From Ignavibacteriales bacterium (GTDB taxonomy: Bacteria > Bacteroidota > Ignavibacteria > Ignavibacteriales > DAOSCP01): a DNA stretch of 64,000 nucleotides. The position numbers were made by a program, and so were the translations under genes. This document shows positions 104-44,202 of the stretch, one piece after another. The stretch covers positions 29,833 to 93,832 of the forward strand of contig DAOSVM010000005.1 in assembly GCA_035379625.1 (NCBI GenBank), read 5' to 3'. The notes below the pieces were generated by a model. The model ran no database searches and was not told where the DNA came from. It saw only the letters and a list, made by a program, of their open reading frames with translations. Each line of letters opens with the position of its first letter. Position 1 is the stretch's first letter.

Positions 104-127
104 TGTACGAATGATACATTATTAAAT

Positions 128-21839: not shown

Positions 21840-21927
21840 TTTTTAATTACCTTTTCTTTTACTAACAATAAATATACTAAAAATGTTCAAATAATCAATG
21901 TTAAATGTGAACTATGATGAATTCTAT

Positions 21928-21960
21928 AAAAAAATTGAGACGTAAGAAATTACGCCTCAA
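21928..21960 (-). terminator. rho-independent terminator after dnaK
   Basis: Minus strand: ttgaggcgtaa-tttc-ttacgtctcaa followed by ttttttt. Confidence 0.75.
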
Positions 21961-21970
21961 TTTTAATTTG

Positions 21971-23866: not shown

Positions 23867-23985
23867 ATTTTTCTCCTTATTGAATAATTATGTTTCCAAA
23901 AATATATAAATATATGAAAACAAAAAAGTTGTTAATAAAATTTAATATTCATTCTGTAGATATTACAGTAAATATGACAAATTTT

Positions 23986-24016
23986 CATAAAAATAGGTGC
24001 ACATGGTGCACCTATT
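23986..24016 (-). terminator. rho-independent terminator after the hsp20 pair
   Basis: Minus strand: ataggtgca-ccatg-tgcacctat followed by ttttat. Confidence 0.7.
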
Positions 24017-24021
24017 TGAAT

Positions 24022-24450: not shown

Positions 24451-24474
24451 AGCGCACCTCCATATTTTTAATTA

Positions 24475-24897: not shown

Positions 24898-25232
24898 GGC
24901 ACCCTCCAAATTTTTAATTTTGTTATTTAATTTCGCCAATAATAATACAACTACCGTGCCAAAAGTTGCAATATCTTTACAACTAATTGATGAACAATGA
25001 GTTATAAAAATTACAATAAAAATAACACATAATTGGTTACATGTCGTACAATATGACAAAATGATATATATTAAGACAAAAAAGCAAAAAATATGATAAA
25101 AATAATGCACTCTCTAATTGTCAATAACTTGAAAATATTTTTGTTAGAGCTATTGACTTTTATAAATTACCTTAATAAATTGATTTTAAGGTCTACAATT
25201 ATTGAGCGAATTATAAAAAAACAGGAGGTATT

Positions 25233-25820
25233 ATGGCAGCTAAAAAAATTTTGATGCTTGTAGGAGACTTCGTAGAAGATTACGAAGCTATGGTCCCTTA
25301 CCAAATCTTAACAATGGTAGGGCATACAGTTCATACTGTTTGTCCTGGTAAAAAGAAAGGTGAAACAGTGAAAACAGCAGTTCACGATTTTATAGGTGAC
25401 CAAACATATGTCGAATTACAAGGCCATCGTTTTTTAATCAATGCAGATTTTGATACCATTAATGAAAAAGAATATGATGCTTTAGTAATTCCTGGCGGTA
25501 GAGCACCTGAATATTTAAGACTAAATCCGCGAGTTATTGAAATTACAAAACACTTTGCAGATTCTAAAAAGCCGATTGCTGCAATTTGTCACGGTCCGCA
25601 AATATTAGCAGCAGCTGGAGTTTTAAAAGGTAGAAATGTAATTTCTTATCCAGCTGTTGGTCCAGAATGCAAAATTGCAGGAGCTAATTTTGGTGAAGTT
25701 TCTCCAAATGCAGATAATGCTCTTACAGATGATAACATAGTTACTGCTCCAGCTTGGCCAGCACATCCAGAATGGATGAGACAATTCTTAAAAATACTTG
25801 GTAGCAAAATTGAACCTTAA
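25233..25820 (+). CDS. DJ-1/PfpI family protein (PfpI-type intracellular protease/glyoxalase-like)
   Basis: DALVIPGGRAPE and the nucleophile elbow AAICHGPQIL. The gene is preceded by AGGAGG. Confidence 0.88.
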   Translation: MAAKKILMLVGDFVEDYEAMVPYQILTMVGHTVHTVCPGKKKGETVKTAVHDFIGDQTYVELQGHRFLINADFDTINEKEYDALVIPGGRAPEYLRLNPRVIEITKHFADSKKPIAAICHGPQILAAAGVLKGRNVISYPAVGPECKIAGANFGEVSPNADNALTDDNIVTAPAWPAHPEWMRQFLKILGSKIEP

Positions 25821-25821
25821 T

Positions 25822-25851
25822 AAAAAAAGGCTGCAGTAGCAGCCTTTTTTT
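25822..25851. terminator. bidirectional terminator
   Basis: aaaaaaaggctgc-agta-gcagccttttttt. Confidence 0.8.
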
Positions 25852-26566
25852 ACGCAACCGAAACTCCGAAAATATATCCCACAATGGCAGAAAGAACCAT
25901 TGATAAAGTACCAAGAATTAAAATTCTTATTGTTGCTTTTTTTATATCTGCTCCGCCAGTTTTTGCTGAAACTGCTCCTAAAAGAATTAAAGAAATAATT
26001 GCAAATAAATAAATTGCATAAATCATATATTGAATTGGTGTAAACAATGTTACCAAAAGTGGTAAAATACCACCGGCGATAAAGGACGCTCCAGATGATA
26101 AAGCTGCTTGTAAAGCATTAGCTTGATGAATTTCATTAATCCCCAACTCATCTCTTACGTGAGCGGCAAGCGCATCGTGTTCGGTTAACTCCTTTGCTAC
26201 CTGCATAGCGGTCTCTTTTTTCAATCCGCGTCTTTCATATATTTGTGCTAATATCTTCAACTCCACTTCTGGATTTTCTTTCAATTCTTGTGCTTCTCTT
26301 TCAATATCAGATTTCTCAATATCTTCCTGCGAGCTAACTGAAACGTATTCTCCTGCGGCCATAGATAATGAGCCAGCTACTAATCCAGCTAACGTTGAAA
26401 GAACAATATGATCTCTTATATTTGTAGCACTTGCAACTCCAATTGCCAAACTTGCAATTGAAATTATACCATCATTTGCTCCTAAAACTGCTGCTCTAAC
26501 CCAATTGCTTTTATGTACATAATGAACATCCAAATAATTGTCAATTGTTAACATATTTAGCCCCAA
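25850..26566 (-). CDS. VIT1/CCC1-family iron/manganese transporter
   Basis: RAAVLGANDGIISIASLAIGVA, an acidic cytosolic helix region, and C-terminal transmembrane helices. This is the typical VIT family layout. Confidence 0.85.
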   Translation of the reverse strand: MGLNMLTIDNYLDVHYVHKSNWVRAAVLGANDGIISIASLAIGVASATNIRDHIVLSTLAGLVAGSLSMAAGEYVSVSSQEDIEKSDIEREAQELKENPEVELKILAQIYERRGLKKETAMQVAKELTEHDALAAHVRDELGINEIHQANALQAALSSGASFIAGGILPLLVTLFTPIQYMIYAIYLFAIISLILLGAVSAKTGGADIKKATIRILILGTLSMVLSAIVGYIFGVSVA

Positions 26567-26573
26567 TTAGTTA

Positions 26574-26777
26574 TTATTTTTTCGATGGGAAGCCTAAAAT
26601 TACTCCCATAACCATTCCGTATAAAGTTGAGTTATACCATTTTGATGTTATTGGACAACTTCCACTTTGGCATCCAATAAAATAGTAATACAGATATCCA
26701 AATGTAGCACCTAAAATAGCAAAAACAACAACTCTAAGATATTTATTTTTTTTGAATAATTCAAAAAAACGTTTCAT
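26574..26777 (-). CDS. small membrane protein with CxxxxC motif (hypothetical)
   Basis: 67 aa with two predicted transmembrane segments flanking GCQSGSCPITS. It lies just downstream of a thioredoxin-fold gene on the same strand. Confidence 0.5.
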   Translation of the reverse strand: MKRFFELFKKNKYLRVVVFAILGATFGYLYYYFIGCQSGSCPITSKWYNSTLYGMVMGVILGFPSKK

Positions 26778-26828
26778 AAAATTGATACCCTTGGTTTATT
26801 AAAATTATATTCACTAAATCAAATAAAA

Positions 26829-27230
26829 TTAATTTGCTTGATAAAGGTTTAATAATTTTTCTTTACTATTGATACCTATCAAATATTGCTTTACTTCGTT
26901 ATTTTCATTAAGTATTATCGATGGAACAGCCTTAATCTTAAAAAAATTTGCCAAATCGAAATCCTTCGTTGCATCAATTGATTCAATATTAATATTTTCC
27001 TTTTTTAGCTCTTCAACTATAGGAGTTTGTGTTTTGCAAACTGAACAACTTGGATTATAAAAATACAAGTAAATTTTTTTGTTGTTTAATTTTTTTGCAA
27101 AATCTGGTTTGAATTTATCTAAATTAATTTTATGACCGATTAATTTTTTGCTTTTTCGTATGATAAACCATTGAAATAAATAAAAAATAGCGATAACTGT
27201 TATTGCAATTATTAAGATTGTTTTTAACAT
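26829..27230 (-). CDS. membrane-anchored thioredoxin-fold protein
   Basis: N-terminal transmembrane helix. CxxC active site NPSCSVCK. The KAVPS pattern resembles the thioredoxin-fold cis-Pro loop. Confidence 0.7.
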   Translation of the reverse strand: MLKTILIIAITVIAIFYLFQWFIIRKSKKLIGHKINLDKFKPDFAKKLNNKKIYLYFYNPSCSVCKTQTPIVEELKKENINIESIDATKDFDLANFFKIKAVPSIILNENNEVKQYLIGINSKEKLLNLYQAN

Positions 27231-27284
27231 AATTTTCTCTTTTTTTTTTAAGATGAATTTTCAAATTAATTGTTACATTAAAAA

Positions 27285-27319
27285 CAAAAAAAAGAACCGT
27301 TAAGGTTCTTTTTTTTTTA
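27285..27319. terminator. bidirectional terminator
   Basis: aaaaaaaagaacc-gttaa-ggttctttttttttt. Confidence 0.8.
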
Positions 27320-27324
27320 TGTTT

Positions 27325-29361
27325 TTATATGTTGAGTAAATCTTTCATAAGGTTTTCGTACATATCGAAAGTAAGTGCTTGTGGCCCATCGGAAAGAGCT
27401 TTTTCAGGCTCTGGATGTATTTCAACTATAATTCCATCGGCGCCAACAGCTTTAGCAGCTTTAGCAAGTGGTACAACTAAATTTCTATGTTTTGCACTGT
27501 GAGATGGATCAACAATTACAGGTAAATGTGTAAGTTCTTTCAAAATTGGTACTGCTGCGATATCCAAAGTGTTGCGTGTTGCAGTTTCAAAAGTTCTAAT
27601 TCCACGTTCACACAATACCACTTGCTGGTTACCTTGTGCTAAAATGTATTCTGCGGCTTGCAAAAGTTCTTCAATAGAAGACATCATTCCGCGTTTTAAT
27701 AAAACTGGAACGTTAGTTTTACCAACTTCTTTTAATAATGCAAAGTTAGCCATATTTCTTGCGCCAATTTGTAACATATCACAACCGCCACGAATTATTG
27801 GTTCAACATCTTCTGGGGCAAGAACTTCTGTTACAATTGGCATACCAAAAGTATTTCCTGCTTCTTTCATCATTTTTAAACCTTCAAAACCAAGCCCTTG
27901 GAAACTATATGGAGAAGTTCTTGGTTTGAAACAACCACCACGTAGAATAACACCACCGTATTCTTTAACCTCTTTTGCAGTCACCATAATTTGATCATAT
28001 GATTCAACTGCACAAGGTCCGGCCATAACAACAAAATTTCCATCACCAATTTTTATATTCTTAACAGTAACAACCGTATTTTCTGGTTTATATGCACGAC
28101 TTGCTAATTTATAACCGCTTGGAGTTTTAGGTTTTTCTTTATTTTCTCTTAATTCAACTTTTGGTTCTGATTTTATTTCTTTTGTTTCAGTATCAATATT
28201 TACTGGTACTGTTACTAGTCGTTCAATATCATAGGCTGGATATGACCCGAGTATTTTCAAAAACCTTGTAACTTTCCTTAATTCGTCAATAGCTGTAGCA
28301 ACATCTGGATCATCCATATTTCCTTCAAAATCGATATAAAATAATTCTTCCCAAGGATTTCCAATAATTGGACGGGATTGAATTTTGGTCATATTTAAAT
28401 TATGCTCTTTGAAAATAGAAAGTGCATCAACAAGAGCACCTGGTTTTTGCTCTGTTGCTAATACTAAACTTGTTTTACAAGGGATTCTTAAATCAACTTT
28501 TTGTGCATTTCGCGCAATTACTAAAAATCTCGTGTAATTTTCAGATTGGTTTGCTATGTTTTTCCTTAAAATTGTCATTTCATAAATCTGAGCAGCTTCT
28601 TCACTTGCAATTGCGGCATAATTTTTATTATTTTCATTTTTTATTTTGTGAACAGCCAATGCTGTATCTTCATAATATTCAATTTTTACATCAGGGAATG
28701 ATTGTAAAAAATTGCTACATTGCATAATTGCTTGTGGATGCGAATAAATCTTTTCGATTTTGTTTAATGGAATATCTTCAATAGCAATCAAACAATGTTC
28801 TACTTTAACTTTTACTTCTCCAACAATTGAAATTTGAGCGTGCGATAAAACATCGTAAACTTCATTGATGCTACCTGATGTTGTATTTTCAATTGGTAAA
28901 ACTCCATAATCAACTTGACCTTCTTCAACAGCTGTTACAACATCTTTAAAGGTGGATTTGGAGAGGAAGGAAAGGCGAGCATCGTTGTGAATAAAAAACT
29001 TTTTACTTGCTTTGTGACTGTATGAGCCTTCTACTCCCTGTATTGCAATGCGTATTATTTCCAAATCATCTAATTCAGGATTTGCAGTTTGTTGCAAATA
29101 ATATTGTTGAATTCTTAATGAATCTTCTATTATTTCATTAAATATTTGAGTTATAAAATATGAATCTATACCTAATTCTTTCCCTTTTTTAATCAATCTG
29201 AATAGTAATTCTTCTTCACGTTTTTTATCTCTTACTTGTGCGCCTTCTAAATTTTTAACTTTAACAATTTCTTGGCTCAAACTCCTTCTTTCTGCCAATA
29301 ATGATAATAATTGCTCATCTATTTGATTAATTTTTTCACGTATTTTGTTTTTATCCTGCAT
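27325..29361 (-). CDS. pheA: fused chorismate mutase / prephenate dehydratase (ACT) / DAHP synthase (type I-beta, AroF/KDO8PS-like)
   Basis: N-terminal CM_2 helix ([23 protein letters not shown]). PDT domain ([12 protein letters not shown]...[10 protein letters not shown]). ACT domain ([18 protein letters not shown]...SRP). C-terminal DAHPS ([10 protein letters not shown]...[13 protein letters not shown]...VDPSH). Confidence 0.85.
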
Positions 29362-29533
29362 ATTTTCTCCTATTTTATGAACTTTTTAATATAAAATTTT
29401 ATATTAAAAATGCAAGTACAAATTTTAAAAAAATGTTAATAATATATTATAGTTATGTAAATAAATTCATATGCTTGTTTTAAAAAGTCTCTTTTTTTTG
29501 TATTTTTAAAAGTTTAATTATTAAATATAATTT

Positions 29534-30301
29534 ATGATAAAATTAGACCAAGTTTCATTCAAATATAATGAGTCAACAGAATATATAATAAAAAAACTTT
29601 CTATTGAATTTAATTCTGGTGATTTTGTTGGTATTGTTGGGCCAAATGGTTCAGGTAAAACAACACTTATAAAAATAATTGCCAATTTACTTTTGCCTCA
29701 AGAAGGTAATTGTTTATTGAATAAAAAAAAATATAATTCTTACAAAAATCAAGAGTTTTACAAGTTAGTTTCTTATGTTCCACAAAATATATCTGTAACT
29801 TATCCTTTTACAGTTTATGAGTTGGTAATGATGGGGAGAGCTCCAAATTTAAGTAGCTATGGAATACCTAAGGATATAGATGTTCAGATAGTAGAAGAAA
29901 AATTAAAAATAATGGATATTTGGAATTTAAGAAATAAAACGATTGATAAATTATCAGGTGGTGAACTCCAGAGAGTATTGATTGCAAGAGCTTTAGCACA
30001 AAATACAGATGTTATACTTTTAGATGAGCCAAGCTCATTTTTAGATTATCGCCACCAAGTTGAAATTTTTAAAGTACTTATTGAATTAAACAAAGCTGGA
30101 AAAATTATTGTCTTAATATCTCACGATTTGAATTTGCTTTCTTGTTATGCTGATAAATTAGCCGTGATAAAAAACGGAGAATTAAAATATTTTGATAAAG
30201 TGCAGAATATTCTTACCAAGAATATTTTAAATGATATTTATGAAACAGAGTTTGAAATTTATAGCCATAATAATAAAAAAATAATAACATTAGCTGTTTA
30301 A
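29534..30301 (+). CDS. ABC transporter ATP-binding protein (FecE/FepC-like)
   Basis: Walker A GPNGSGKTT, signature LSGGELQR, Walker B ILLDEPSSFLD. Confidence 0.85.
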   Translation: MIKLDQVSFKYNESTEYIIKKLSIEFNSGDFVGIVGPNGSGKTTLIKIIANLLLPQEGNCLLNKKKYNSYKNQEFYKLVSYVPQNISVTYPFTVYELVMMGRAPNLSSYGIPKDIDVQIVEEKLKIMDIWNLRNKTIDKLSGGELQRVLIARALAQNTDVILLDEPSSFLDYRHQVEIFKVLIELNKAGKIIVLISHDLNLLSCYADKLAVIKNGELKYFDKVQNILTKNILNDIYETEFEIYSHNNKKIITLAV

Positions 30302-30303
30302 AT

Positions 30304-31308
30304 TTGAAAATAAATAATACAAAAATACTAGTCTTTTTACAAAATTCATTTATTTGGTTACTTAATCTAATTCTTTTATACGCAATTAAATACAGAAATC
30401 AAAATTTATCAATTACCGAATTCAAATTTACATTGGGAAATGTAATAAATTTGAGTTGTGTTTTATTTAATATTATACTATTAGCTGTAGTATTAATAAA
30501 AAATAATTTTAGCAAAATTAAAATTACACAAATTTATGGATTAACATTTGGAATTTTTATTTCACTTTTTGTCGTTTTTATTTTAACTGAATTTAACATT
30601 CCTATTCCTAAAATATATATAGGTTATTATCACATAAAAAAAATTTTAATTTTAGTAGCTTTTATGTTTGTTCAAATATTACAATTTTATATTTCTTCAA
30701 TCTTATTAGGTTCTTTACAAAGAAGAACTCCTAAAATCCTGGAGCATTTACTTTTTATAACCATATTTTTTTCAATACTTTATGTTATATCATTTGCAAA
30801 TTTATTTTCAAAAGTTAGTTTTAATGAAAACAAAAAATATGATTATGGAGTAGTTTTAGGGGCTGCTGTATGGTCTAATAATAGGCCAAGTCCTTCACTA
30901 ATTGAAAGAGTTGAGCGAGCAATTACATTATTTAAAAGTGGAAATATTGAAAAAATATATTTAACTGGTGGAAATGCGCCAGGAGAACTGAGCGAGGCAG
31001 AAGTTGCTTTTAATTATATTCAAAAAAAATATCCAGAAAAAGATATTTTGGACAATATAATTTTAGAAAAAGAAACAAAATCTACAGCTGAACAAATTTA
31101 TTACGTAAAATTATTGCTTAAACAAAATAAAAATATTCTTATAATTTCAGATTATTTACACGTTCTAAGAGCTCAAAAAATGTGTGAGTTTTTTAATGTA
31201 AAAGCTGATGTCGCTCCAACAAATGATTTATCCGAAAGCAAAATTACGATCTTTAAACTTTTTCGAGAAGCAAGTGCATTATTAATGTTTTTGTTGTTTG
31301 CTTATTAA
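30304..31308 (+). CDS. membrane protein with C-terminal YdcF/DUF218 domain
   Basis: About 5 N-terminal transmembrane helices. DUF218 core: YGVVLGAAVWSNNRPSPSLIERVERAITLFKSGNIEKIYLTGG. Confidence 0.75.
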   Translation: MKINNTKILVFLQNSFIWLLNLILLYAIKYRNQNLSITEFKFTLGNVINLSCVLFNIILLAVVLIKNNFSKIKITQIYGLTFGIFISLFVVFILTEFNIPIPKIYIGYYHIKKILILVAFMFVQILQFYISSILLGSLQRRTPKILEHLLFITIFFSILYVISFANLFSKVSFNENKKYDYGVVLGAAVWSNNRPSPSLIERVERAITLFKSGNIEKIYLTGGNAPGELSEAEVAFNYIQKKYPEKDILDNIILEKETKSTAEQIYYVKLLLKQNKNILIISDYLHVLRAQKMCEFFNVKADVAPTNDLSESKITIFKLFREASALLMFLLFAY

Positions 31309-31321
31309 ATAAGAGGAGAGT

Positions 31322-33676
31322 ATGAAAAAAGTAAAGAATACACAATTACCAGAAATTTTACCTGTTCTACCACTTGTAGATAAAGTGTTATTCCCCGGGA
31401 TGGTTCTTCCTGTATTAGTTGGTAGGGAGCAATCCCTTGAAGCAGTTATGATGGCTATGAACAACAATAAAATGTTGTTTGTTGTTGCACAAAAAGAAAA
31501 TAAAACGGAAAAATTAAATCCTGATGATATTTTTTCTTTCGGGACTATTGCTACTATCGTTAGTATGGTCAGACTACCAAATGGCCTTTTAAAAATATTA
31601 CTTGAAGGTTTATATCCTGCTCATATACAGTCGGTTACAAATACAAATGATTATTTGGAATGTACTTTTAAAGTTATAGATTATCGAGATGACAAAAATG
31701 ATAAAGATTTAGAAATTCTCTTTAAACAATTAGAAAGATTGTTTACAGAGTATGTGCGTGCTAATGATAATATCCCAAATGAGCTATTGGATACATATGA
31801 AAATTTGGAATCATTTCAACAAAAAGTTTTTTTTGTTGTTGCAAATATAAATGAAAAAAATAAAACCAAACAACAACTCTTAGAAGCACCAAATTTGAAA
31901 GAACAGATTCTAATTGCAATTAATTTGCTTGAAACTGAATTGCAAGTTTTGAAAGTACATAAAGAAATTGAAAACAAAGTACGAGAAAAACTAGTTAGCA
32001 ACCAGAAAAAAGCTATTATTCAAGAGCAAATTAGAATTTTAAAGCAAGAATTGGGCGATGAAGTTGACGAGATAGAAGATACTGATATTCAAAAATTCAA
32101 AGAAATGGCCAAAAAAGCCAAATTACCAAAAAATATTTATGAAAAATTTAATGAAGAAATTAAAAAATTAGCTAAAACTCATCCATTTTCACCAGAATAT
32201 AGTGTAACTCGTAATTATATAGAATGGTTGGAAAAAGTTCCGTGGACAAAAAAGACAAAGGATAATTTGGATATAAGTGTTGTAAAAAAGATTTTGGATG
32301 AAGATCATTACGGTTTAGAGAAACCTAAAGAAAGAATTTTGGAATATATTTCAGTTCTCAATTTAGTAAAATCACTCAGAGGTCAAATTTTATGTTTAGT
32401 TGGGCCACCGGGAGTTGGTAAAACATCTTTGGCTAAATCTATCGCAAGAGCACTGAATAGAAATTTTGTAAGAATATCACTTGGTGGTGTTCGTGATGAA
32501 GCAGAAATTAGAGGGCACAGAAGAACTTATGTAGGTGCTTTGCCTGGTAAAATTATTCAAGCTATGAAAAAAGCTGGTAGTATCAATCCTGTTATATTAC
32601 TTGATGAAATTGATAAAATGACAAGCGATTTCCGTGGCGATCCAGCATCCGCTATGTTGGAAGTTTTAGATCCCGAGCAAAATAAAGCTTTCAACGATCA
32701 TTATCTTGAAGTTGATTATGATCTTTCAAATGTCTTTTTTATTACTACAGCTAACGTAATGTATAATATTCCTGCACCTTTGTTGGATAGAATGGAAGTT
32801 ATTGAATTACCCGGCTATCTTAGCAATGAAAAAATACATATTGCTTTAAATCATATAATTCCAAAACAAAAAGAATTAAACGGCCTGAAAGATATTAAAA
32901 TAATTTGGCAAAAATCTTCTTTAAATTATTTAATTGATAATTATACTCGTGAAGCTGGAGTTAGAAATTTAGAAAGAACAATAGCAAGTTTGATGAGAAA
33001 AATTGCAAAAGATATTGTTGAAAATAAAATGAAAATCGATGATAAATTAACAATTACTTTAACAGAAAAGAAAATTACAAGTTATTTAGGCGTACCAAAA
33101 TATACAAAAGATTTTGCATATACTGAGCCAAAAATTGGCGTAGCAAATGGGCTTGCGTGGACATCCACCGGAGGTGATGTTATGGTTGTTGAAGCTACTG
33201 CTATGAAAGGAAGTGAAAAACTTATTCTTACCGGTAAACTTGGTGACGTGATGAAAGAATCGGCTACAACCGCATTTAGTTTTATTAAAGCTAATGCCGA
33301 TTATTTTGGTATAAATCCAGAAACTTACGAGAAAAAAGATATCCATATCCATTTCCCTGAAGGTGCTATACCAAAAGATGGACCTTCGGCTGGAATAACT
33401 ATCGCTACAGTGTTAGTTTCTATTTTAGCTAATAAGAAAGTTAATCCTGATTTTGCGATGACAGGTGAAATTACTTTACAAGGTAATATTTTGCCAATTG
33501 GTGGATTAAATGAAAAATTATTAGCTGCTAAAAGATTAAAAATCAATAATGTTATTATTCCTGCTGAAAATGAAAAAGATTTAACCGAAATAAAACAAGA
33601 TATTAAAGCAGGGCTCAATATTATTTTTGTTAAAAATTATTTTGAAGCTTACAAATATTTATTCATTAACGAGTAA
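31322..33676 (+). CDS. lon: ATP-dependent protease Lon
   Basis: LON N-domain (LPVLPLVDKVLFPGMVLPVLVGRE). Walker A GPPGVGKTS. Catalytic Ser in KDGPSAGITI. Confidence 0.95.
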   Translation: MKKVKNTQLPEILPVLPLVDKVLFPGMVLPVLVGREQSLEAVMMAMNNNKMLFVVAQKENKTEKLNPDDIFSFGTIATIVSMVRLPNGLLKILLEGLYPAHIQSVTNTNDYLECTFKVIDYRDDKNDKDLEILFKQLERLFTEYVRANDNIPNELLDTYENLESFQQKVFFVVANINEKNKTKQQLLEAPNLKEQILIAINLLETELQVLKVHKEIENKVREKLVSNQKKAIIQEQIRILKQELGDEVDEIEDTDIQKFKEMAKKAKLPKNIYEKFNEEIKKLAKTHPFSPEYSVTRNYIEWLEKVPWTKKTKDNLDISVVKKILDEDHYGLEKPKERILEYISVLNLVKSLRGQILCLVGPPGVGKTSLAKSIARALNRNFVRISLGGVRDEAEIRGHRRTYVGALPGKIIQAMKKAGSINPVILLDEIDKMTSDFRGDPASAMLEVLDPEQNKAFNDHYLEVDYDLSNVFFITTANVMYNIPAPLLDRMEVIELPGYLSNEKIHIALNHIIPKQKELNGLKDIKIIWQKSSLNYLIDNYTREAGVRNLERTIASLMRKIAKDIVENKMKIDDKLTITLTEKKITSYLGVPKYTKDFAYTEPKIGVANGLAWTSTGGDVMVVEATAMKGSEKLILTGKLGDVMKESATTAFSFIKANADYFGINPETYEKKDIHIHFPEGAIPKDGPSAGITIATVLVSILANKKVNPDFAMTGEITLQGNILPIGGLNEKLLAAKRLKINNVIIPAENEKDLTEIKQDIKAGLNIIFVKNYFEAYKYLFINE

Positions 33677-33679
33677 AAT

Positions 33680-34195
33680 ATGAAAACAATCGAAAAAATA
33701 AGCGGAAAAGAAGAAAAATATATTTACTTGTTGAACAATTTGGAAACTTTTTTTGATAAAAATGATCATATTTTATCTAATCTATCGAACTTTGCTGCCG
33801 TTTATTACGATACATTCGAAAACCTAAACTGGGCTGGTTTTTATTTTGATGATGGTAAAAAATTAGTTTTAGGTCCATTTCAAGGAAAAATTGCCTGTAC
33901 AAATATCGATTATAATCGTGGTGTATGCGGAAAAGCTTTCTCAACTGATCAAGTTGTTGTTGTCAAAGATGTTCATCAATTTGAAGGGCATATTGCGTGT
34001 GATGCCGCATCACAATCTGAAATTGTTGTGCCATTTTACAAAAATAATCAAAAATTCGGCGTGTTTGATGTCGATAGTCCTAAACTTGAAAATTTTTGTG
34101 ATGTCGACGCACATTATTTGAAATTAATAATCGATAAATTTTTTGATAAAATTATAAACTATGAAGATTTAATTAAAATTTGCAAATTAATTTAA
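33680..34195 (+). CDS. GAF-domain protein (free methionine-(R)-sulfoxide reductase, MsrC/YebR-like)
   Basis: WAGFYF...LVLGPFQGKIACTNIDYNRGVCGKAF...GHIACDAASQSEIVVP matches the fRMsr pattern with its conserved Cys residues. Confidence 0.8.
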   Translation: MKTIEKISGKEEKYIYLLNNLETFFDKNDHILSNLSNFAAVYYDTFENLNWAGFYFDDGKKLVLGPFQGKIACTNIDYNRGVCGKAFSTDQVVVVKDVHQFEGHIACDAASQSEIVVPFYKNNQKFGVFDVDSPKLENFCDVDAHYLKLIIDKFFDKIINYEDLIKICKLI

Positions 34196-34207
34196 GGAGG
34201 TGAAACT

Positions 34208-36118
34208 ATGGTTAACAATAATGAACAAGCTCAAAAGTTTGAATTTAAAGCCGAAACTCAAAAAGTGCTCGATATTTTAATCCATTCCCTTTATACAAAT
34301 AAAGATATCTTTTTACGGGAGTTGATTTCAAACGCTTCCGACGCGCTGGATAAAGTTAGATTTCTCTCCATCAAGGGGGATGAAATTGTTGACAATGATT
34401 TACCTTATGAAATTCATTTGAAAGCTGATAAAGAAAAAAATATTCTTATTGTTGCTGATAATGGTATTGGAATGACAAAAGATGAGGCTATTAAAAATTT
34501 AGGTACAATTGCTAAATCTGGTACCGAAGAATTCATAAAAAATTTGCCCAAGGATAGAAAAGAAGTTGAATCCTTAATTGGTAGATTTGGTGTTGGCTTT
34601 TATTCTGTCTTTATGGTTGCCGACGAAGTAGAAATAATTACAAAATCTGCAATTCCGGGAAATAAACCTGTTAAATGGATTTCCGATGGTAAAAACTCAT
34701 ATGAAGTTTATGAAATTGATGAAGACCAAAACATTACACGTGGTACAAAAATCCATATCTACTTAAAAGATGATGCAAAAGAATACACCGAGCCATCAAA
34801 ATTAAAAGAAATCATTAATACACATTCATCATTTATTTCATTCCCAATTTTTGTTGAAGGAGAACGTGTAAACACTTTAGCTGCTATTTGGAGAGAACCT
34901 AAAAATACACTCCGAAAAGAGCAATATGAAGATTTTTACAAATTTTTAACTCACGATTACCAAGAACCATTAGATTACATTCACATTTCAATTGATGCTC
35001 CAATACAATACAAAGCTTTACTTTTTATTCCCAAAAGTGCATACGATTTTTATGGAATATTAAAAGAAGACTACGGATTAGATTTATATTCAAACCGTGT
35101 ACTTATTAAACATAAATTCAAAGATTTATTACCAGAATATTTAGGATTTTTACAAGGTGTTGTAGATTCAGAAGATTTACCATTAAATGTTTCTCGCGAA
35201 TCCATTCAAGAAAATGCAATTTTAAGAAAAATTTCATCAAATTTAGTATCGCAAGTATTTAGCCATTTACAAAAATTAGCAACAGAGCGACCAGATGATT
35301 ATAAATTATTCTGGAAAGAACACGCTAAGGTATTTAAACACGGATACAGCGATTTTTCAAATAAAGATAAATTTATCGAGCTAATTCGTTTTAATTCTTC
35401 AACTTGCCAAAACCAAGACGAAATAATATCCTTAAATGATTATGTTTCCAGAATGAAACCTGAACAAGAAGAAATTTATTACAGCTTAGGAAATTCATAT
35501 AACTCTATTAAAAATAATCCTCATTTTGAAATATTTGAAAGAAAAGGTCTAGAAGTATTATTTTTATATGATCCATTTGACGAATTTATGTTATCAGCCC
35601 TTGCTAATTACAAAGATAAAAAATTTGTATTGATTGAAAACGCAGATATCCAAAAAATTAACAAAATGCCAGATGAAGTAACAAAAGATAAAGATGTAGA
35701 AAATCTTACAGATGATGAAGCTGTAAAATTTGGAGAATTTTTAGTTTATATCAAAAAATATTTAGGTGATAAAGTAAAAGAAGTAAAAGAATCCAATCGA
35801 TTATTAACAAGTCCGGCTTGTTTGGTAGATAGCGATGGAATGTTTTCGTCTTCATTCCAAAAAATTATTAAAATGATGAACAAAGATACATCCATACCAC
35901 CTAAGGTATTTGAAATTAACAAAGATCACAAAATTATCCGCAATCTATTACAAATATTCACAAAAGATAAAGAAGACGAATTTTTAAAGCGTAGCATCGA
36001 TGAGTTATTCGATACTGCATTATTATTAGATGGTTATTTAAATGATCCTACTACATTTGCAAGCCACATAAATTACATACTTGAAAAATCAACAGCACTC
36101 TACAACGAAAAGAAATAA
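34208..36118 (+). CDS. htpG: molecular chaperone HtpG (Hsp90)
   Basis: FLRELISNASDALDK, GRFGVGFYS and LNVSRE signatures. Confidence 0.95.
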   Translation: MVNNNEQAQKFEFKAETQKVLDILIHSLYTNKDIFLRELISNASDALDKVRFLSIKGDEIVDNDLPYEIHLKADKEKNILIVADNGIGMTKDEAIKNLGTIAKSGTEEFIKNLPKDRKEVESLIGRFGVGFYSVFMVADEVEIITKSAIPGNKPVKWISDGKNSYEVYEIDEDQNITRGTKIHIYLKDDAKEYTEPSKLKEIINTHSSFISFPIFVEGERVNTLAAIWREPKNTLRKEQYEDFYKFLTHDYQEPLDYIHISIDAPIQYKALLFIPKSAYDFYGILKEDYGLDLYSNRVLIKHKFKDLLPEYLGFLQGVVDSEDLPLNVSRESIQENAILRKISSNLVSQVFSHLQKLATERPDDYKLFWKEHAKVFKHGYSDFSNKDKFIELIRFNSSTCQNQDEIISLNDYVSRMKPEQEEIYYSLGNSYNSIKNNPHFEIFERKGLEVLFLYDPFDEFMLSALANYKDKKFVLIENADIQKINKMPDEVTKDKDVENLTDDEAVKFGEFLVYIKKYLGDKVKEVKESNRLLTSPACLVDSDGMFSSSFQKIIKMMNKDTSIPPKVFEINKDHKIIRNLLQIFTKDKEDEFLKRSIDELFDTALLLDGYLNDPTTFASHINYILEKSTALYNEKK

Positions 36119-36155: not shown

Positions 36156-36652
36156 TTAGCTCAGACAGTGTAAGCATAAAGCCCGTGCGCCTGGCGGCGC
36201 ACGGGCGGGCTGAAGCCCAAAAAAATAATATTCCATTTAAGCGCCATAACCACCACATTACCAACCAGTTACAATATTTATATTTTTCATCAAGAATAAA
36301 AATTTTATGAAATATTTTTTATAATTTACCGGCAAGTTTTCAAATCTTATAATATATTCGTAAATACGATATAATAGCTTTAACAATATAATTGTAAATG
36401 CAATTATACTATAAAAAACATAGCATCATATGTAAAAATTTGCAAAATTACATTTTAGCTTAGTCAAAAGATTAATTTTTATCAAACACTCCTTATCCTA
36501 CGGGTTGCCAGGTATTTTGGAAAGATATAAGTATAAAGGCCAAAGCACTACACTTTGTTAGGTGTTAAAGAAAAGATTTTATGCGGGCCGTTCCGGCCCG
36601 CGCCCACGTGCGGCAACGCCGCACGTGGGCTATGCTTATACCGTCTGAGCTA
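36156..36652 (+). mobile_element. MITE-like ORF-less element, copy B (497 bp)
   Basis: Alpha end: TIR ttagctcagacagtgtaagc (36156-75), hairpin gcccgtgcgc/gcgcacgggc (36181-90/36197-206), then gggc-tgaa-gccc and an A-run. Beta end: hairpins gcgggccg/cggcccgc (36583-90/36594-601) and gcccacgtgcggc/gccgcacgtgggc (36602-14/36618-30), then TIR gcttataccgtctgagcta (36634-52). The core is AT-rich. Confidence 0.75.
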
Positions 36653-36842
36653 TGATAAAAAAATGAATTTTTTAATATTTTTGAAAATAAATTTTGTTTT
36701 TTGCATCATATCATTTCTATAACTACAATTTATGGAATTAAATTATTGTTAAAATTTTTTTAAATAAAGAAAAAAAGTTAGAAATTGTTTATATTATAAT
36801 TTTAAATTTGGCATTTTTTTTAAAATTTTAGTGAGGGGTTAA

Positions 36843-40403: not shown

Positions 40404-40409
40404 AATAAA

Positions 40410-40436
40410 GGCCGCCCGTAAGGGCGGTTTTTTTTT
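40410..40436 (+). terminator. rho-independent terminator after nifJ
   Basis: ccgccc-gtaa-gggcgg followed by ttttttttt. Confidence 0.85.
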
Positions 40437-40448
40437 ATCTCCTTTTAT

Positions 40449-40918
40449 TTAGCTCAGACGGTGTAAGCTTAGCCCGCTTGCGCGGGCAGGGCTAAAGCCC
40501 AGAATAAATATTTAACATACAACCCCATATCAACAATATAATCAACACCTTACGCTATTTATTTAGCATAAAATCAACTAAAATTTATAGTTTTTTATAC
40601 AAATAATATATTCGTATTTGCAATATATTTGTATTTACGATATATTAGCAATTATTAAAAATATCTTTGTAATTGTATTATATTTGTATTTGTAATAATA
40701 TTGTATCTACGATATATATTATCTTCAAAATTATATTGTTTTATAGATATAGTTTTAAAAGCTGTAAGTAATTAAAATATTGCAGGAATTTTTTTTGTAG
40801 ATAAGAAGATTTTTAATTGTTAGCAAAAATGCTTCGCCAACCAACTTTATATTAAGGAAGAAAATTAATTCCCCTTACAAAAGGGGATTAAAGGCTATGC
40901 TTATACTGTCCGAGCTAA
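40449..40918 (+). mobile_element. MITE-like ORF-less element, copy C (470 bp)
   Basis: Alpha end: TIR ttagctcagacggtgtaagc (40449-68), hairpin gcccgc-ttgc-gcgggc (40472-87), then gggc-taaa-gccc. Beta end: hairpin tcccctt-acaa-aagggga (40870-87) and TIR gcttatactgtccgagctaa (40899-918). The core holds 17-bp phased motifs. Confidence 0.75.
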
Positions 40919-40941
40919 TGAAAAATTTTTTTTTCAATAAT

Positions 40942-40973
40942 AAAAAAAAGCCCTTGCTTGGTTAGCAAGGGCT
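40942..40973 (-). terminator. rho-independent terminator after the T9SS gene
   Basis: Minus strand: agcccttgct-aacca-agcaagggct followed by tttttttt. Confidence 0.8.
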
Positions 40974-40991
40974 AGATAAATAATTATATCT

Positions 40992-42849
40992 TTATTTGAC
41001 CAACATCATCTTTTTGCTAATTTTTACATTTCCTGCTTCTAAACTGTAAATATAAATACCACTTGTTAAGCTATTTCCATTGAAGTTGATGCTGTAATAA
41101 CCTGCTTCTTGCTCGCCTTCATATAATTTCATAACTTCTTGGCCTGCAATGTTGTAGACTTTCAATATAACTTTTGAGCTTTGTGGTATACCATAATTTA
41201 TTACTGTAGTTGGATTAAAAGGATTTGGATAATTTTGTTTTAATTCATATTGCATTGGACGTATGTTTTCCAATACCAATGTATTGCTGTATTTGTAGCT
41301 GCCATCGTTATCTACTATCTTCAAACGATATGAACTATTTGACGTAATATTATTGTCTTCAAAACTATATTTATGTTCCACATTTGAATTTCCTGCTGCT
41401 GTAACTTCACCAACCTTTAACCATTTTCCCGAAACTAATTTTTCAACTTCAAATCTATTACTATTAACCTCAGATTTTGTAATCCAAGTTAGCTCAATTT
41501 TTGAGTTAATATATCTATAGTTAAATGAAGATAACTCAACAGGAAGCGGACCATCGATGATTATTACATCATCTATATAGTTGGATTGGTATGAATTCCC
41601 ACTTGCTCCTATTGCAATTAGATAATTACCCGCCGCAAGAGGTGATAAATCTACGCTACATAAATTCCAAGAATAAACTGCGTTAAAAGTTGAACCAATT
41701 TGTGTCCAATTTGTTCCGTTATCTGTAGAATATAACACTTTATTACTACCAGAACCATAATTATAAAATTGGATTAACCCACTCCCACCTTGTAATGTTA
41801 CATTTTTGTAGATTTTCTCATCAGTAAAACTACTGCTAGAATAACATTGAGCACTTGCATTTCCACCAGGTCTATAAATTGATGTATTTCTACTATATTT
41901 TGTGCTTGCAGACCAACCTGTAGGTGGGAAAGTTATATTTTCAAATCCTTCCGCTGTTGTACCTGCTGGGAAAATAGTAACATTTGTGTTGGCAGTATTA
42001 TTCGTATTATTATCATCAGCTTGAGATTCAGCTGTAACAGTGAAAATACCACCAACTGTTGGAGTCCAAGGAATATCAATATTGGTTGTTTGACCGGCGT
42101 TAAGACTTGCTATTGTACCACTATTGACTGTATTAGTCCCAACTTTCAAATTAATTGTAATATTGGAAAGATTATTTAAACCTTCATTAGATACGTTAAC
42201 TCTAAATGTTTGTTCATTTCCCGCAATTTGGTTACCAGTGTATAATTGGACAGAATTTACTTTTATATCATTATTATTTACAACACTAATTTCAAATTTA
42301 TCAATCCAAACATCATTTAAACTGTAAGCTGCATTTACTTCCAAAGCAAATTTTGCATTATTTACATTATAAGCTAGTGGAATATCAAACGTTTTTTTTT
42401 GTCCAACTTGTTGATGTTGTAACATTACTTCCTATTTGATTAAAAGTGCTACCACCGTCAGATGAAGCGTATACTTTAACTATAGCCGAACCAGAATAGT
42501 AATAATGATAAAATGACAACCTTTTACTTGATGTTGATGATAAATCAATTTGTGGTGTTATAAGTCTTCTGGTATTACCAGAATTACAATAATAATCATT
42601 GAAATGAGCAACTGCAGAACCATCATAAGCCCCAGTAGGTTTAGTCCCATTACCTAAAGGAGACCAAGAACCACTCCATACTGCCTTTTCCCAATATATT
42701 GATGTATTTGTACCGGTAGCGATTTGTGCCCAACCTGAAGGTGCTGTACCGTTTGTACTAGGAGACCAAGTTCCTTCAAATGAATCGCTAAATATTACTT
42801 GAGCATTTAATGTAAAAGATATAAATAAAAAATAAAATAATTTTTTCAT
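40992..42849 (-). pseudogene. T9SS cargo protein (choice-of-anchor-J-like x2, CARDB-like, C-terminal sorting domain) split by a frameshift in an A9 run
   Basis: ORFs 42385-42849 and 40992-42425 overlap at the coding-strand A9 tract (42392-42400). With A8 the reading ...TSWTKKTFDIPLAYN... is continuous (~618 aa). The N-terminal signal is followed by FSDSFEG...PSGW. A second copy reads AEGFENITFPPTGW. The C-terminus is NYPNPFNPTTVINYGIP...GIYIYSL...KMMLVK. Confidence 0.7.
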
Positions 42850-42942
42850 TTTAACTCCTTGTTAATATTTGTTATATATAAATTATGTAAAATAAATATA
42901 ATTGTCAAGTTAAATATTTTGTAAACACGATATATATTTTTA

Positions 42943-43353
42943 TTAGCTCAGACGGTGTAAGCTTAGCCCGCTTGCGCGGGCAAGGCTAAAGCCCAGAAAA
43001 ATTCTTACTAACACGCTATAACTTACCTATTTTCAATGAATTACAGTATATTTATATTTTTTACAATAATCAAAAATGAAAAATTATGAATATTAATAGC
43101 AAATGTAAAATTCTTATAATATTTTTGTATATACGATATAATTGTACCTGCAATATAAATTAAATTTGCGAAAATATATACTTATATACGATATTGTATA
43201 AAAAAACGAAAATATTAGTAATGTAAAACAATAGTATAAATAATATAATTGTATTAGTGATATATATTAGGTAAAGCTCCGCTATACCTGCGTGCTGGCA
43301 GGCAACTACTTGTTAAGAGTGCAATAGGTTTAAGCTTATACTGTCCGAGCTAA
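42943..43353 (+). mobile_element. MITE-like ORF-less element, copy D (411 bp)
   Basis: The alpha end (42943-42998) matches copy C at 55 of 56 positions. The beta end has a weak hairpin cctgc/gcagg (43287-91/43298-302) and TIR gcttatactgtccgagctaa (43334-53). That TIR plus flank matches C over 26 bp. Confidence 0.75.
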
Positions 43354-43423
43354 TGAAAATTTTTATTTTTAATTTGAGTTATATTCTTAAATTGTTTATA
43401 TTACTTAAAAAAAAGTATGAATT

Positions 43424-44191
43424 ATGGATGACTTAAGAAAAAAAATTGAGGAAATAAAAAAGGCTGCAACTCAAGTTTATATCGATAAAACGGCTGAAAT
43501 TTTGAGAGAAAAAAAACAGGAACTTATTCAAGAAAGGTTGCGCGAGGAAAGAGCGAGGAAAGATCCACGTGATGTTATTTTTGAAAAAATTAATGAATTA
43601 GCTAAAAAAGGAGAGTGGCAGGAAATTATTATTATTTATCAAAATGAAAAGCCTGGTTTTATAAAGGAGCACGCTCTGAAGTCTGTTTCTACGGCTGCTA
43701 ATAATGTTTTGGAAAAATATAAAAATAATTTGCAACTTGATATGCTGGTTAAGGTTGAGATTTCTCAGTTCATAAATGATGAAGTTAAGAAAAATGCTGT
43801 AGGAATTATCAATCAGATTTATGAAAAGGCAATAAACAATTATAAAAATTCGAAAGAAACTGAAAATTTGGAAGAGGTTTTGAAATCTAATATTAAGGAA
43901 GTTAAAAATCTTGCTGGTAAAACACTGATTGAGATTTATTCATCGGATCAGAAATATTATGTTGATTTGTTGAAATTGTCAAATAATTCTCGTTTGTTTG
44001 GGGATATTAGTTTTTGGGCAGGAAAAAAATTGTTGGAGATTGTTTATTTAGAAAACGCTGGAACGATTGATCCGGATTTTATTGTTAGATTTAAGAAAGA
44101 ATTTAATTATTCGCAATTTCAAACATTTTTTTATCATCTTATTGATAGTGATGTTAAAAAATTAATAGATAAACACAAGGAAACAATATAA
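43424..44191 (+). CDS. hypothetical protein (helical, Lys/Glu-rich)
   Basis: 255-aa ORF with ordinary codon usage and no motif I recognise. An 11-bp gap to the next gene suggests co-transcription. Confidence 0.6.
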   Translation: MDDLRKKIEEIKKAATQVYIDKTAEILREKKQELIQERLREERARKDPRDVIFEKINELAKKGEWQEIIIIYQNEKPGFIKEHALKSVSTAANNVLEKYKNNLQLDMLVKVEISQFINDEVKKNAVGIINQIYEKAINNYKNSKETENLEEVLKSNIKEVKNLAGKTLIEIYSSDQKYYVDLLKLSNNSRLFGDISFWAGKKLLEIVYLENAGTIDPDFIVRFKKEFNYSQFQTFFYHLIDSDVKKLIDKHKETI

Positions 44192-44202
44192 GGAAAATTT
44201 TT

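Follow-up and report, generated by a model that had tools for sequence, protein, structure and literature searches.

A family of short, inverted-repeat-bounded and probably mobile elements without internal transposase in Ignavibacteriales

The window, as we call the whole stretch of 64,000 nucleotides analysed here, comes from an Ignavibacteriales MAG and carries four segments (A to D) that share their ends and lie outside genes, A in the spacer between a lipase gene and serS, B and C close to the htpG, PFOR and T9SS-tail protein genes, and D between divergent gene starts (Table 1). All four were found where an earlier, sequence-only reading had placed them, and inspection of the sequence agreed with it; for copy B the start at 36156 was right, but the end is at 36653 instead of 36652. 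Copy A is inverted with respect to B, C and D. The shared ends are terminal inverted repeats (TIRs) of 20 bp, as had been described, although the two ends of a copy are complementary at 17 of 20 positions in all four cases, and not at 17-18. The 20-mer TTAGCTCAGACRGTGTAAGC matched the window ten times at up to 3 mismatches, with none expected from 100 dinucleotide-preserving shuffles, and eight of these matches made up four inward-facing pairs. Moreover, profile HMMs for the end modules, built solely from copies outside the window, recovered the four alpha ends (E = 6.7e-27, 5.9e-24, 1.5e-15 and 6e-14) and the beta ends of A and B (E = 4.3e-23 and 7.6e-25), and these matches displayed the alpha/beta polarity proposed earlier.

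The inner architecture was also borne out on checking sequence and alignments, including the hairpins, the mini-hairpin GGGCTNAAGCCC, the A-run, the shared blocks, and the division into A/B and C/D sub-families, with one difference in 56 alpha-end positions and 26 identical beta-end positions between C and D. Each TIR is followed, 3-5 bp inwards, by a GC-rich perfect palindrome. The alpha hairpin region is kept in 40 alpha ends, and in copy B it makes a terminator-like site on the minus strand (36206-36181). Beta hairpin 1 stays paired through compensatory changes: across copies, 97.6% of the cells were paired and 4 pairs had changed on both sides, a result that none of 500 shuffles matched. 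Between the end modules, the AT-rich core consists of units repeated in one direction every 17 bp, and its motif YGTAWWTACRATATA yielded 21 matches against 6.7 expected, six of them in the copy A array and all six on the minus strand. As claimed earlier, no copy contains a convincing ORF (the longest span 27-62 codons and begin with TTG), and no transposase domain was found either among the ORFs called for the window or in the adjoining 10 kb on the left.

Table 1. Coordinates of the elements, their parts and their relics in the window
Feature	Positions	Strand	Description
Copy A	169-684	-	516 bp; beta TIR 169-188, alpha TIR 665-684; alpha HMM E = 6.7e-27, beta HMM E = 4.3e-23
17-bp repeat array in copy A core	332-496	-	TRF: period 17, 9.3 copies
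Copy B	36156-36653	+	498 bp; between htpG terminator and PFOR gene; alpha E = 5.9e-24, beta E = 7.6e-25
TIR of copy B, alpha	36156-36175	+	0 mismatches to the 20-mer pattern
Alpha hairpin of copy B	36181-36206	+	GCCCGTGCGCC-TGGC-GGCGCACGGGC; read from the sequence
Mini-hairpin of copy B	36207-36218	+	GGGCTGAAGCCC; directly after the alpha hairpin
Beta-proximal module of copy B	36494-36582	+	Conserved in primary sequence only; alignment of 26 beta ends
Beta hairpin 1 of copy B	36583-36601	+	GCGGGCC-GTTCC-GGCCCGC
Beta hairpin 2 of copy B	36602-36630	+	GCCCACGTGCGGC-AAC-GCCGCACGTGGGC
TIR of copy B, beta	36634-36653	-	ATAGCTCAGACGGTATAAGC read inwards
Copy C	40449-40918	+	470 bp; between terminators of PFOR gene and T9SS-tail protein gene
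Copy D	42943-43353	+	411 bp; between divergent gene starts
Single TIR-like 20-mer in 2-oxoacid dehydrogenase E2 gene	13366-13385	-	In frame (LTPSEP), inter-domain linker; candidate insertion
In-frame insertion relic in phosphomannose isomerase gene	50537-50617	+	81 bp; single TIR at 50561-50580
Decayed copy	58297-58868	+	Alpha-type TIR 58297-58318 without hairpins, AT-rich spacer, core repeats 58821-58868; repeat family D3

The relics that had been mentioned together with the intact copies turned out to be three matches to the TIR only, two of which (13366-13385 and 50561-50580) fall within coding sequences. In the phosphomannose isomerase gene, the relic amounts to 26-27 extra residues that were absent from 8 homologues in a protein alignment; no partner TIR could be recognised in it and it does not fold. 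The third match heads an 850-bp spacer of 20% GC in which core repeats are still present. A further case was found outside the window: an SNF2/PLD helicase gene (L050) contains, in frame, a TIR pair of 153 bp, located in a region of about 70 residues that 8 homologues lack. When a short version inserts into a gene without breaking its reading frame, it may be able to persist as an extra peptide segment.

Such a behaviour brings to mind the Rickettsia palindromic elements (RPEs), reportedly described by Ogata et al. in 2000. RPEs, which are summarised in a review (PMC10969869), are likewise short repeats bounded by palindromes; they have inserted in frame into housekeeping genes that are unrelated to one another, where the additional peptide segments are tolerated. 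However, they belong to another host phylum and are unrelated in sequence to the elements studied here, which are mostly 400-700 bp long and intergenic and in which in-gene copies are a minority. Hence, the family does not belong to the RPEs and shares with them only the behaviour of in-frame insertion.

Scans of sequence collections yielded more than 70 further copies, at the least, of 288-761 bp in other Ignavibacteriales DNA. Among the matches listed, the genome scan gave a 483-bp TIR pair plus a solo beta end in an Ignavibacteriales MAG and a 557-bp TIR pair in a contig binned as Clostridium, and the metagenome TIR scan gave at least 105 loci with at least 76 TIR pairs. Several contigs of 40-130 kb from one metagenome each gave several loci, so that the density of copies in the window, which had been thought unusually high, is typical of the genomes that carry the element. 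The TIR scan found no match in viral contigs, BLAST of copy B against plasmid and phage collections gave none either, and the 70.8 kb examined from three relatives (L117-L119), whose PFOR protein is 70-71% identical, yielded no copy. Literature searches on the TIR sequence, and on Ignavibacteria together with MITEs or repeats, returned nothing.

From the matches listed we extracted a set of 61 unique oriented copies. The 56 of them below 900 bp had a median length of 541 bp (range 288-761 bp, among the matches listed) and a median longest ORF of 48.5 codons. In the 61 copies, TIR positions 5-7, 9-11, 13-14 and 16-17 were invariant at both ends and positions 19-20 nearly so, whereas positions 8, 12 and 15 were A or G and varied independently at the two ends (at position 12, beta/alpha combinations were A/G in 32 copies, G/G in 14, G/A in 8 and A/A in 5). 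Sub-families share this TIR even where their interiors are unrelated. An invariant core together with independent change at the variable positions of the two ends is a sequence pattern that fits recognition by a protein rather than TIR-TIR pairing. Gene 3' ends were faced by 36 of 49 beta sides and by 32 of 48 alpha sides, and 22 of 42 copies lay between convergent genes; no orientation bias of the copies towards neighbouring genes was detected. Likenesses of the TIR to the tRNA D-arm, the CIRCE half-site TTAGCACTC and Tn3-/ISL3-type ends were discarded because of wrong spacing or duplication length.

The sequence-only reading had proposed to look for empty orthologous sites, and one was found for copy A in two contigs, L122 (from a sister species) and L123, as judged by gene order and spacer length only. 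Gene order is conserved there, the flanking genes are 72-82% identical in DNA, and the lipase-serS spacer, which measures about 612 bp in the window including the 516 bp of copy A, is 116 bp long in L122 and 63 bp in L123, both without any element signal; these two spacers have diverged too far for the ends of the element to be fixed to the base. BLAST of flanks among the fetched loci revealed only filled orthologues with length differences. The sister contig L009, which lacks copy C downstream of PFOR, was rejected as a clean empty site because gene order differs there. Between near-identical strains, the elements differed at 3.8-5.1% of sites, plus array indels of 63 and 111 bp, and the adjacent non-element spacer at 1 of 338 sites, which means that element interiors diverge more than 10 times faster than the DNA next to them. 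Furthermore, strain L010 has one copy more, with hybrid flanks that combine those of C with those of D, a gene and an element having been duplicated together (segmental duplication), and different T9SS genes lie between the copies in the strain with the extra copy.

Some TIR-bounded units, none of them in the window, carry passenger genes and no transposase. These include a unit with HsdS (E = 9.5e-57) at 3751-5724 of L032, half an HsdS in both L061 and L109, and an N6_N4 methylase with a RAMA domain plus a neighbouring ORF of 289 residues at 2256-4624 of L064. Among the matches listed, five TIR pairs exceeded 1 kb in length; they contained HsdS, restriction-modification genes or murB and no transposase, and none was detected between any TIR pair in about 1 Mb of element-rich DNA (about 140 TIR ends), although rare autonomous copies may have escaped the scans. 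Clustering of ORFs disclosed no multi-copy transposase-like family, and the ORFs just inside solo TIRs were housekeeping genes.

We believe that these segments are probably a lineage-specific, non-autonomous mobile element family of MITE/MIC-like character, moved by some enzyme. This agrees with what had been proposed from the window, and rests on the many copies dispersed in several Ignavibacteriales genomes, the empty site, the insertions within genes and the absence of an internal transposase. As to the kind of enzyme, mobilisation in trans and the role of the palindromes, we infer that a transposase whose gene lies in another part of the genome, or has since been lost, would bind the TIR core nnnG-CTC-R-GAC-R-GT-R-TAAGC, and that the segment would have moved into AT-rich DNA beside the terminators of neighbouring genes. 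The palindromes would be kept as a structural part of the ends and may belong to the transposition complex or, alternatively, shield the element by terminating transcription that enters from outside. Once a copy has inserted, its interior would evolve freely, with 17-bp or 62-bp tandem arrays gaining or losing units, copies may recombine with or convert one another, and the AT-rich interior could take up passenger genes; those observed here are genes for restriction-modification and other defence functions. The good conservation of the alpha and beta modules and of the palindromes could also reflect a host function.

A different mechanism was suggested by the ends, most of which read TA|GCTC...GAGC|TA, as if the family were a MITE of the IS630/Tc1-mariner type with true ends GCTC...GAGC, a flanking TA representing the duplicated target and an IS630-family transposase as the mover. 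The AT-rich targets and the fact that the invariant part of the TIR begins at positions 4-5, just inside the TA, are in keeping with it, and TA was present at both ends in 35 of the 61 copies. Nevertheless, it was absent from one or both ends in the other 26, and position 3 was G in 18 of 61 beta ends versus 4 of 61 alpha ends, an asymmetry in the outer three bases that looks inherited, unlike the random decay of a duplication. When duplications were sought in the 61 copies with boundary offsets of 0-4 and lengths of 1-9, no matching flanks of 4 bp or more were found at any offset, and 3-base matches occurred in at most 3 of 61. Separating the terminal TA from the TIR would require a base-exact empty site. 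Since there is neither a target-site duplication nor, among the matches listed, an IS630-type or other transposase between TIRs, in the window or in the fetched loci, the TA duplication initially put forward is unsupported and an IS630-type origin is unlikely. Another possibility is that the unit is, as in REP/BIME/REPIN sequences, a GC-rich palindrome plus a conserved flank at each end, spread by a single-copy HUH enzyme of RAYT type that acts on single-stranded hairpin DNA without target duplication. REP units measure 20-40 nt and have a conserved 5' tetranucleotide, and the palindrome itself is their conserved recognition element. The two systems are alike in their numerous extragenic GC-rich palindromes close to gene 3' ends and terminators, in the arrangement of two end modules as an inverted pair, in the lack of target duplication and in an enzyme that is not encoded within the repeat, and the upkeep of perfect palindromes by compensatory changes, with no G-U bias, also speaks for this reading. 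Yet here conservation is strongest in a 17-nt repeat that is not palindromic and lies outside the hairpin, hairpin sequences differ between ends and sub-families while the TIR is constant, and the elements are 300-760 bp long with long interiors. Moreover, phmmer found no RAYT gene or other Y1 transposase match among 1846 ORFs in the 1.17 Mb of fetched loci, although the query was an approximate IS608 TnpA and the test a weak one. We consider this explanation quite unlikely.

Two further explanations were considered. One is a cassette maintained by the host, either a transcription insulator/terminator block or a protein-binding array (17-bp palindromic T(C/T)GTAwwTAC(G/A)A), that spread mainly by duplication and recombination. 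It would account for the terminator-like ends, the enrichment between convergent genes, the directional and repeated core motif, the conserved end modules and the joint duplication of gene and element in L010, but neighbouring genes have terminators of their own a few bases away, array length and interior differ between near-identical strains, cores are unrelated between sub-families, copies also occur in coding sequences, and syntenic relatives manage without the element, all of which makes a host cassette very improbable. The other is a family of structured ncRNA genes of 400-500 nt with the ends paired via the inverted repeats, an idea encouraged by the stable hairpins, by the 20-bp stem that the inverted termini could make and by the fact that most TIR mismatches would be G-U pairs on the alpha-to-beta strand. 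However, RNAalifold saw the terminal hairpins only, with no further covariation in 40 alpha and 26 beta ends, and the variable TIR positions of the two ends do not covary. Mismatches in the palindromes were G-T in 5 cases and A-C in 5, too few and strand-balanced, so that neither strand is favoured and no G-U bias is seen. At the gathering threshold, Rfam recognised only one tRNA in the window, and at a relaxed one the matches to copy B were at chance level, far below gathering scores. In view of the lack of covariation beyond the palindromes, the lack of an Rfam match, and interiors that diverge fast, the reading as a structured ncRNA or regulatory cassette, which had been offered as an option, is unsupported, and with lengths of 288-761 bp, interiors unrelated between sub-families and no orientation bias, an ncRNA family is hardly credible. 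A scan for sigma-70 promoters was uninformative in DNA of this composition.

Returning to a non-autonomous mobile family, its short copies are MITE-like and its gene-carrying relatives resemble mobile insertion cassettes (MICs). Like prokaryotic MITEs, those of "type II" in particular, the elements have TIRs in the 4-30 bp range and no transposase ORF, are AT-rich, intergenic and multi-copy, vary in presence among relatives and form stable stem-loops (PMC10969869). They depart from them in that most copies exceed 500 bp (median 541 bp; 411-516 bp in the window), in having neither flanking direct repeats nor a known autonomous partner, and in being polar and modular, with a GC-rich palindrome kept inside each TIR and an internal tandem array. 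Prokaryotic MITEs usually measure 50-500 bp, their flanking duplications decay in old copies, and "type II" MITEs share only the TIRs with any autonomous element (PMC10969869); a MITE of 611 bp is accepted in the literature. The units with HsdS (L032, L061) or with a methylase and a neighbouring ORF (L064) are similar to MICs, such as the IS231-related MIC231 of Bacillus cereus, and to gene-carrying MITEs, such as E622 (PMC5444012, PMC10969869), in that passenger genes are bounded by TIRs without a transposase. MICs, however, have the TIRs of a known IS and target duplications, whereas for the family no parent IS is known and no duplications were seen. The Correia elements of Neisseria and the BOX, RUP and SPRITE repeats of Streptococcus pneumoniae are 100-200 bp long, and Correia and RUP come with duplications, of TA or otherwise, and with IS partners that are known or suspected. 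This smaller size, those duplications and those partners set them apart, and there is no sequence similarity to the family. They resemble it in their dispersed intergenic distribution and hairpin or terminator-like ends (PMC10969869), as well as in their modular sub-families, clustering and insertion near one another. The family seems new to the literature, but is a known kind of selfish DNA and not a new kind of system.

A bolder proposal is that of an undescribed transposition system, in which the 17-nt repeat and the adjacent maintained palindrome of each end would be recognised, without target duplication, by an enzyme not encoded between the ends, and in which the AT-rich array interior would preferentially carry or receive restriction-modification and other defence genes, making the family a vehicle of defence-gene turnover in Ignavibacteriales. 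We regard this as doubtful; interest in the family would rise if the mobilising enzyme proves unusual.

In a phylum that has been little studied, the finding brings to light a repeat family that is apparently uncatalogued. It accounts for assembly breaks and variable spacers in Ignavibacteriales MAGs, and several contigs with the lipase gene that lies beside copy A are less than 5 kb long. For annotation, it means that evidence is needed before spacers with these elements are labelled as sRNA genes or promoters. The elements also bear on the evolution of their hosts: they drive local rearrangement, as illustrated by the extra copy with hybrid flanks and the different T9SS genes between copies in one strain, enzymes gain peptide segments from them, and in three or four cases found restriction-modification genes are bracketed by related units.

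The four segments with common ends and architecture described in the sequence-only reading were confirmed by reading the segments themselves and by a pattern search for their terminal inverted repeat (TIR), which, with up to 3 mismatches, gave 10 matches in the window and 0 in 100 shuffles, eight of the ten pairing up as copies A, B, C and D. The four-copy observation is real. As proposed, imperfect 20-bp inverted repeats (TTAGCTCAGACRGTGTAAGC ... GCTTATACYGTCYGAGCTAA) form the two ends of each copy, but their complementarity is 17/20 in all four rather than 17-18. The proposed polar layout holds in every copy: at the alpha end the TIR is followed by a GC-rich hairpin, then by the mini-hairpin GGGCTNAAGCCC and finally by an A-run; at the beta end a T-rich stretch leads to one or two GC-rich hairpins and these to the TIR. 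The AT-rich core that separates the two ends is a directional array repeating every 17 bp (9.3 units at 332-496 in copy A by TRF), each unit containing the 12-bp palindrome T(C/T)GTAwwTAC(G/A)A. The core motif YGTAWWTACRATATA had 21 matches in the window versus 6.7 expected, nearly all within elements and without exception in the alpha-to-beta direction. In agreement with the first reading, no credible ORF was found inside A-D and no transposase domain among the called ORFs of the window; the 10 kb adjoining it on the left likewise gave none.

Element copies in the window, located as TIR pairs by pattern search
Copy	Position	Orientation
A	169-684	inverted
B	36156-36653	
C	40449-40918	
D	42943-43353	

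The host is an Ignavibacteriales MAG of ~30% GC, and the neighbours of the elements are all housekeeping genes (htpG, PFOR, T9SS-tail proteins, serS and a GDSL lipase). The window also carries a 770-residue protein (17001-19313) with a [FeFe]-hydrogenase large-subunit-like domain, ferredoxin-type clusters and a methyl-accepting chemotaxis signalling domain, and a chaperone/protease cluster (19341-36118; clpB, dnaK, two tandem hsp20 paralogues, lon and htpG) in which the 3' ends of the hsp20 paralogues (24022-25110) are 73% identical over 100 nt. The DNA repeats at 7830-7897, 12594-12661 and 41180-41258 were rejected as mobile DNA: they encode the conserved C-terminal T9SS sorting domain (…NYPNPFNP…) in each of three genes for secreted proteins.

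Copies were also counted outside the window, as the sequence-only reading had suggested. Scanning one genome per species yielded at least two further cases among the matches listed: in another Ignavibacteriales MAG, a 483-bp TIR pair together with a solo beta end (L002 and L001), and in L005, a contig binned as Clostridium, a 557-bp pair. With at least 105 TIR-bearing loci from the metagenome scan, the total came to at least 76 TIR pairs, of which the 61 unique copies that could be oriented were used for the end statistics; the 56 copies under 900 bp among the matches listed measured 288-761 bp (median 541). With profile HMMs trained solely on outside copies, A-D were all recovered, at E-values as low as 1e-27; the only other hits in the window were three TIR-only relics. 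Since three relatives with PFOR 70-71% identical, including Rosettibacter firmus, had no copy in 70.8 kb, the family is confined to certain lineages. Its sub-families share the TIR and differ in the interior, which is the AT-rich 17-bp array in sub-family 1 and 62-63-bp units full of TGCCACC(N4-10)GGTGGCA palindromes in sub-family 2, where the alpha hairpin is also different. One such unit was gained or lost between the otherwise identical contigs L099 (12097-12481) and L100; sub-family 2 was also present at L039, L072 and L031, and its repeats give rise to spurious ORFs of 124-176 codons.

The interpretation as a mobile-element family is supported by an empty site, by insertions within genes and by rearrangement at the copies. 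The gene order BFN-FadL-lipase|serS-RsmB around copy A is kept in the syntenic relatives L122 (sister species, GCA_020049655.1) and L123, with 72% and 80-82% DNA identity in the genes flanking the site. The lipase/serS spacer is ~612 bp in the window, 516 bp of it copy A; the corresponding length is 116 bp for L122 and 63 bp for L123, two contigs devoid of TIR pattern or HMM signal. Copy A is inserted in the interval from the lipase stop codon (+26 bp) to the A-tract of a shared bidirectional terminator. Empty orthologous sites, from which exact ends and a target duplication had been expected, were found for copy A, but the spacers are too diverged between species to fix its ends to the base. 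Of the ten public contigs with an identical lipase gene (window 717-2024), five fall below 5 kb, perhaps because assemblies break at the nearby copy A.

At locus L050, the gene for a 1213-residue SNF2/PLD helicase contains a 153-bp TIR pair that keeps its reading frame, and alignment with 8 homologues (1103-1138 residues) placed ~70 extra residues exactly there. Similarly, the phosphomannose isomerase gene of the window has an 81-bp in-frame insertion (GFGAKSQLQRPSSLHRPSQIENSKNAF, 50537-50617) containing one TIR (50561-50580) and adding 26-27 residues that are missing from 8/8 homologues. The TIR at 13366-13385 (2 mismatches), translated in frame as LTPSEP within the linker that joins the lipoyl domains in a 2-oxoacid dehydrogenase E2 acyltransferase, may mark a further insertion. 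Upstream of a TonB-dependent receptor gene, a ~850-bp spacer of 20% GC (58297-59140) begins with a degenerate, hairpin-less alpha TIR and retains three core-repeat units (58821-58868). This spacer is probably an expanded copy in decay.

Rearrangement was seen between PFOR and pyrD (DHO_dh), which are directly adjacent in three relatives (L117-L119) and separated in the window by C, two T9SS-related genes, D and a 255-residue ORF. In the nearly identical strain represented by L010, the T9SS genes between C and D are different and larger, and an extra copy has a left flank like that of D and a right flank like that of C (compared stretches: window 40404-44202, L010 10028-18397 and L117-L119). 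This interval is a strain-variable segment structured by elements. A core-repeat unit (TGTAAACACGATATA, 42915-42934) lies just outside the alpha TIR of D, and the flank holding it recurs upstream of T9SS genes in L010; D may thus sit inside an older relic, or the upstream region of the gene may have been duplicated along with the element. Between the two strains, B, C and D differ at 24/487, 18/469 and 21/410 aligned sites (3.8-5.1%) and by a 111-bp array indel, whereas the adjoining non-element spacer differs at 1/338 sites and the flanking genes by 0.5-0.9%. This excess points to exchange between copies and array slippage, and not to purifying selection on the interior; it suggests either that dispersed copies convert one another or that mutability is locally high.

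The structured ncRNA or regulatory cassette, the alternative first offered, was not supported: the element had no Rfam match; RNAalifold on 40 alpha and 26 beta ends found terminal hairpins and nothing further, the inner modules being conserved at the level of primary sequence only; copies had no orientation preference relative to their neighbours; and interiors diverge fast between strains. Among the matches listed, gene 3' ends adjoin 36/49 beta sides and 32/48 alpha sides, and 22/42 copies sit between convergent genes. The neighbouring genes retain their own terminators, 5-30 bp from the elements. Beside many copies, these terminators belong to a few sequence types recurring in unrelated loci, AAGCAAGC...GCTTGCTT and GCTCCCTTT...AAAGGGAGC (e.g. 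window 121-160; L022, L039, L072 and L105; L028, L042, L053 and L077), and may be a repeat family themselves or a preferred target.

Over the 61 copies, TIR positions 5-7, 9-11, 13-14 and 16-17 are invariant at both ends and 19-20 nearly so, positions 8, 12 and 15 are A or G (A being commoner at the beta end) and the outer three bases are loose. Within a copy, the variable positions at one end change independently of those at the other, a pattern that fits protein recognition of each end; base pairing between TIRs does not fit. A GC-rich hairpin lies 3-5 bp inside nearly every TIR; its sequence varies by end and sub-family, yet it stays an almost perfect palindrome. In one hairpin type with 27 distinct versions, 97.6% of cells pair and 4 pairs are changed on both sides, values reached by 0/500 shuffles. 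As mismatches are rare and balanced (G-T 5 versus A-C 5), the constraint acts on DNA or both strands and not on one RNA strand, and the same pattern could arise without selection by quasi-palindrome correction. In the beta-to-alpha direction, both ends resemble intrinsic terminators; in sub-family 2, both are predicted terminators of inward-reading transcription.

As for the mechanism, the IS630-type transposition with TA duplication first suggested would account for the TA found at both flanks of 35/61 copies. We consider it unlikely, since the remaining copies lack the paired TA, a search for target-site duplications found no direct repeat of 3 bp or longer at the flanks, no transposase was seen between TIRs in the loci covered and a G at TIR position 3 (beta 18/61, alpha 4/61) looks inherited with the element. 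A REPIN-like HUH mechanism seems to us about equally unlikely. The longer copy with a transposase between the same TIRs was looked for, and the five TIR pairs over 1 kb among the matches listed hold instead HsdS (L032), half-length HsdS (L061 and L109), murB (L106) or, at L064, an N6/N4 methylase beside another ORF; nor was there a multi-copy transposase-like ORF family in ~1 Mb of loci among these matches. At L050 (2143-11526), inward-facing ends, both of alpha type, lie 9.4 kb apart and enclose genes for the SNF2/PLD helicase, Schlafen/AlbA_2, an Eco57I-type methylase (1143 residues) and a small methyltransferase, a defence island among housekeeping genes. The best reading is a non-autonomous element that would be mobilised in trans by a putative enzyme recognising the TIR core.

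By the MITE criteria of a recent review (PMC10969869), the family is alike in its TIRs, absence of ORFs, AT-richness, intergenic multi-copy spread and stem-loops, and unlike in having no direct repeats and being somewhat too long. Its gene-carrying versions behave like mobile insertion cassettes and its in-gene copies like Rickettsia palindromic elements; in their modular build with terminator-like ends, the copies are reminiscent of SPRITE, BOX and Correia. The family is unrelated in sequence to all of these. Neither the TIR sequence nor a matching element was found in the searched literature, Rfam, or plasmid and phage collections. The family is apparently undescribed, yet of a known kind; what makes it worth pursuing are its ends, which combine a repeat and a maintained palindrome with no duplication and no known enzyme, and the link to defence-gene cargo.
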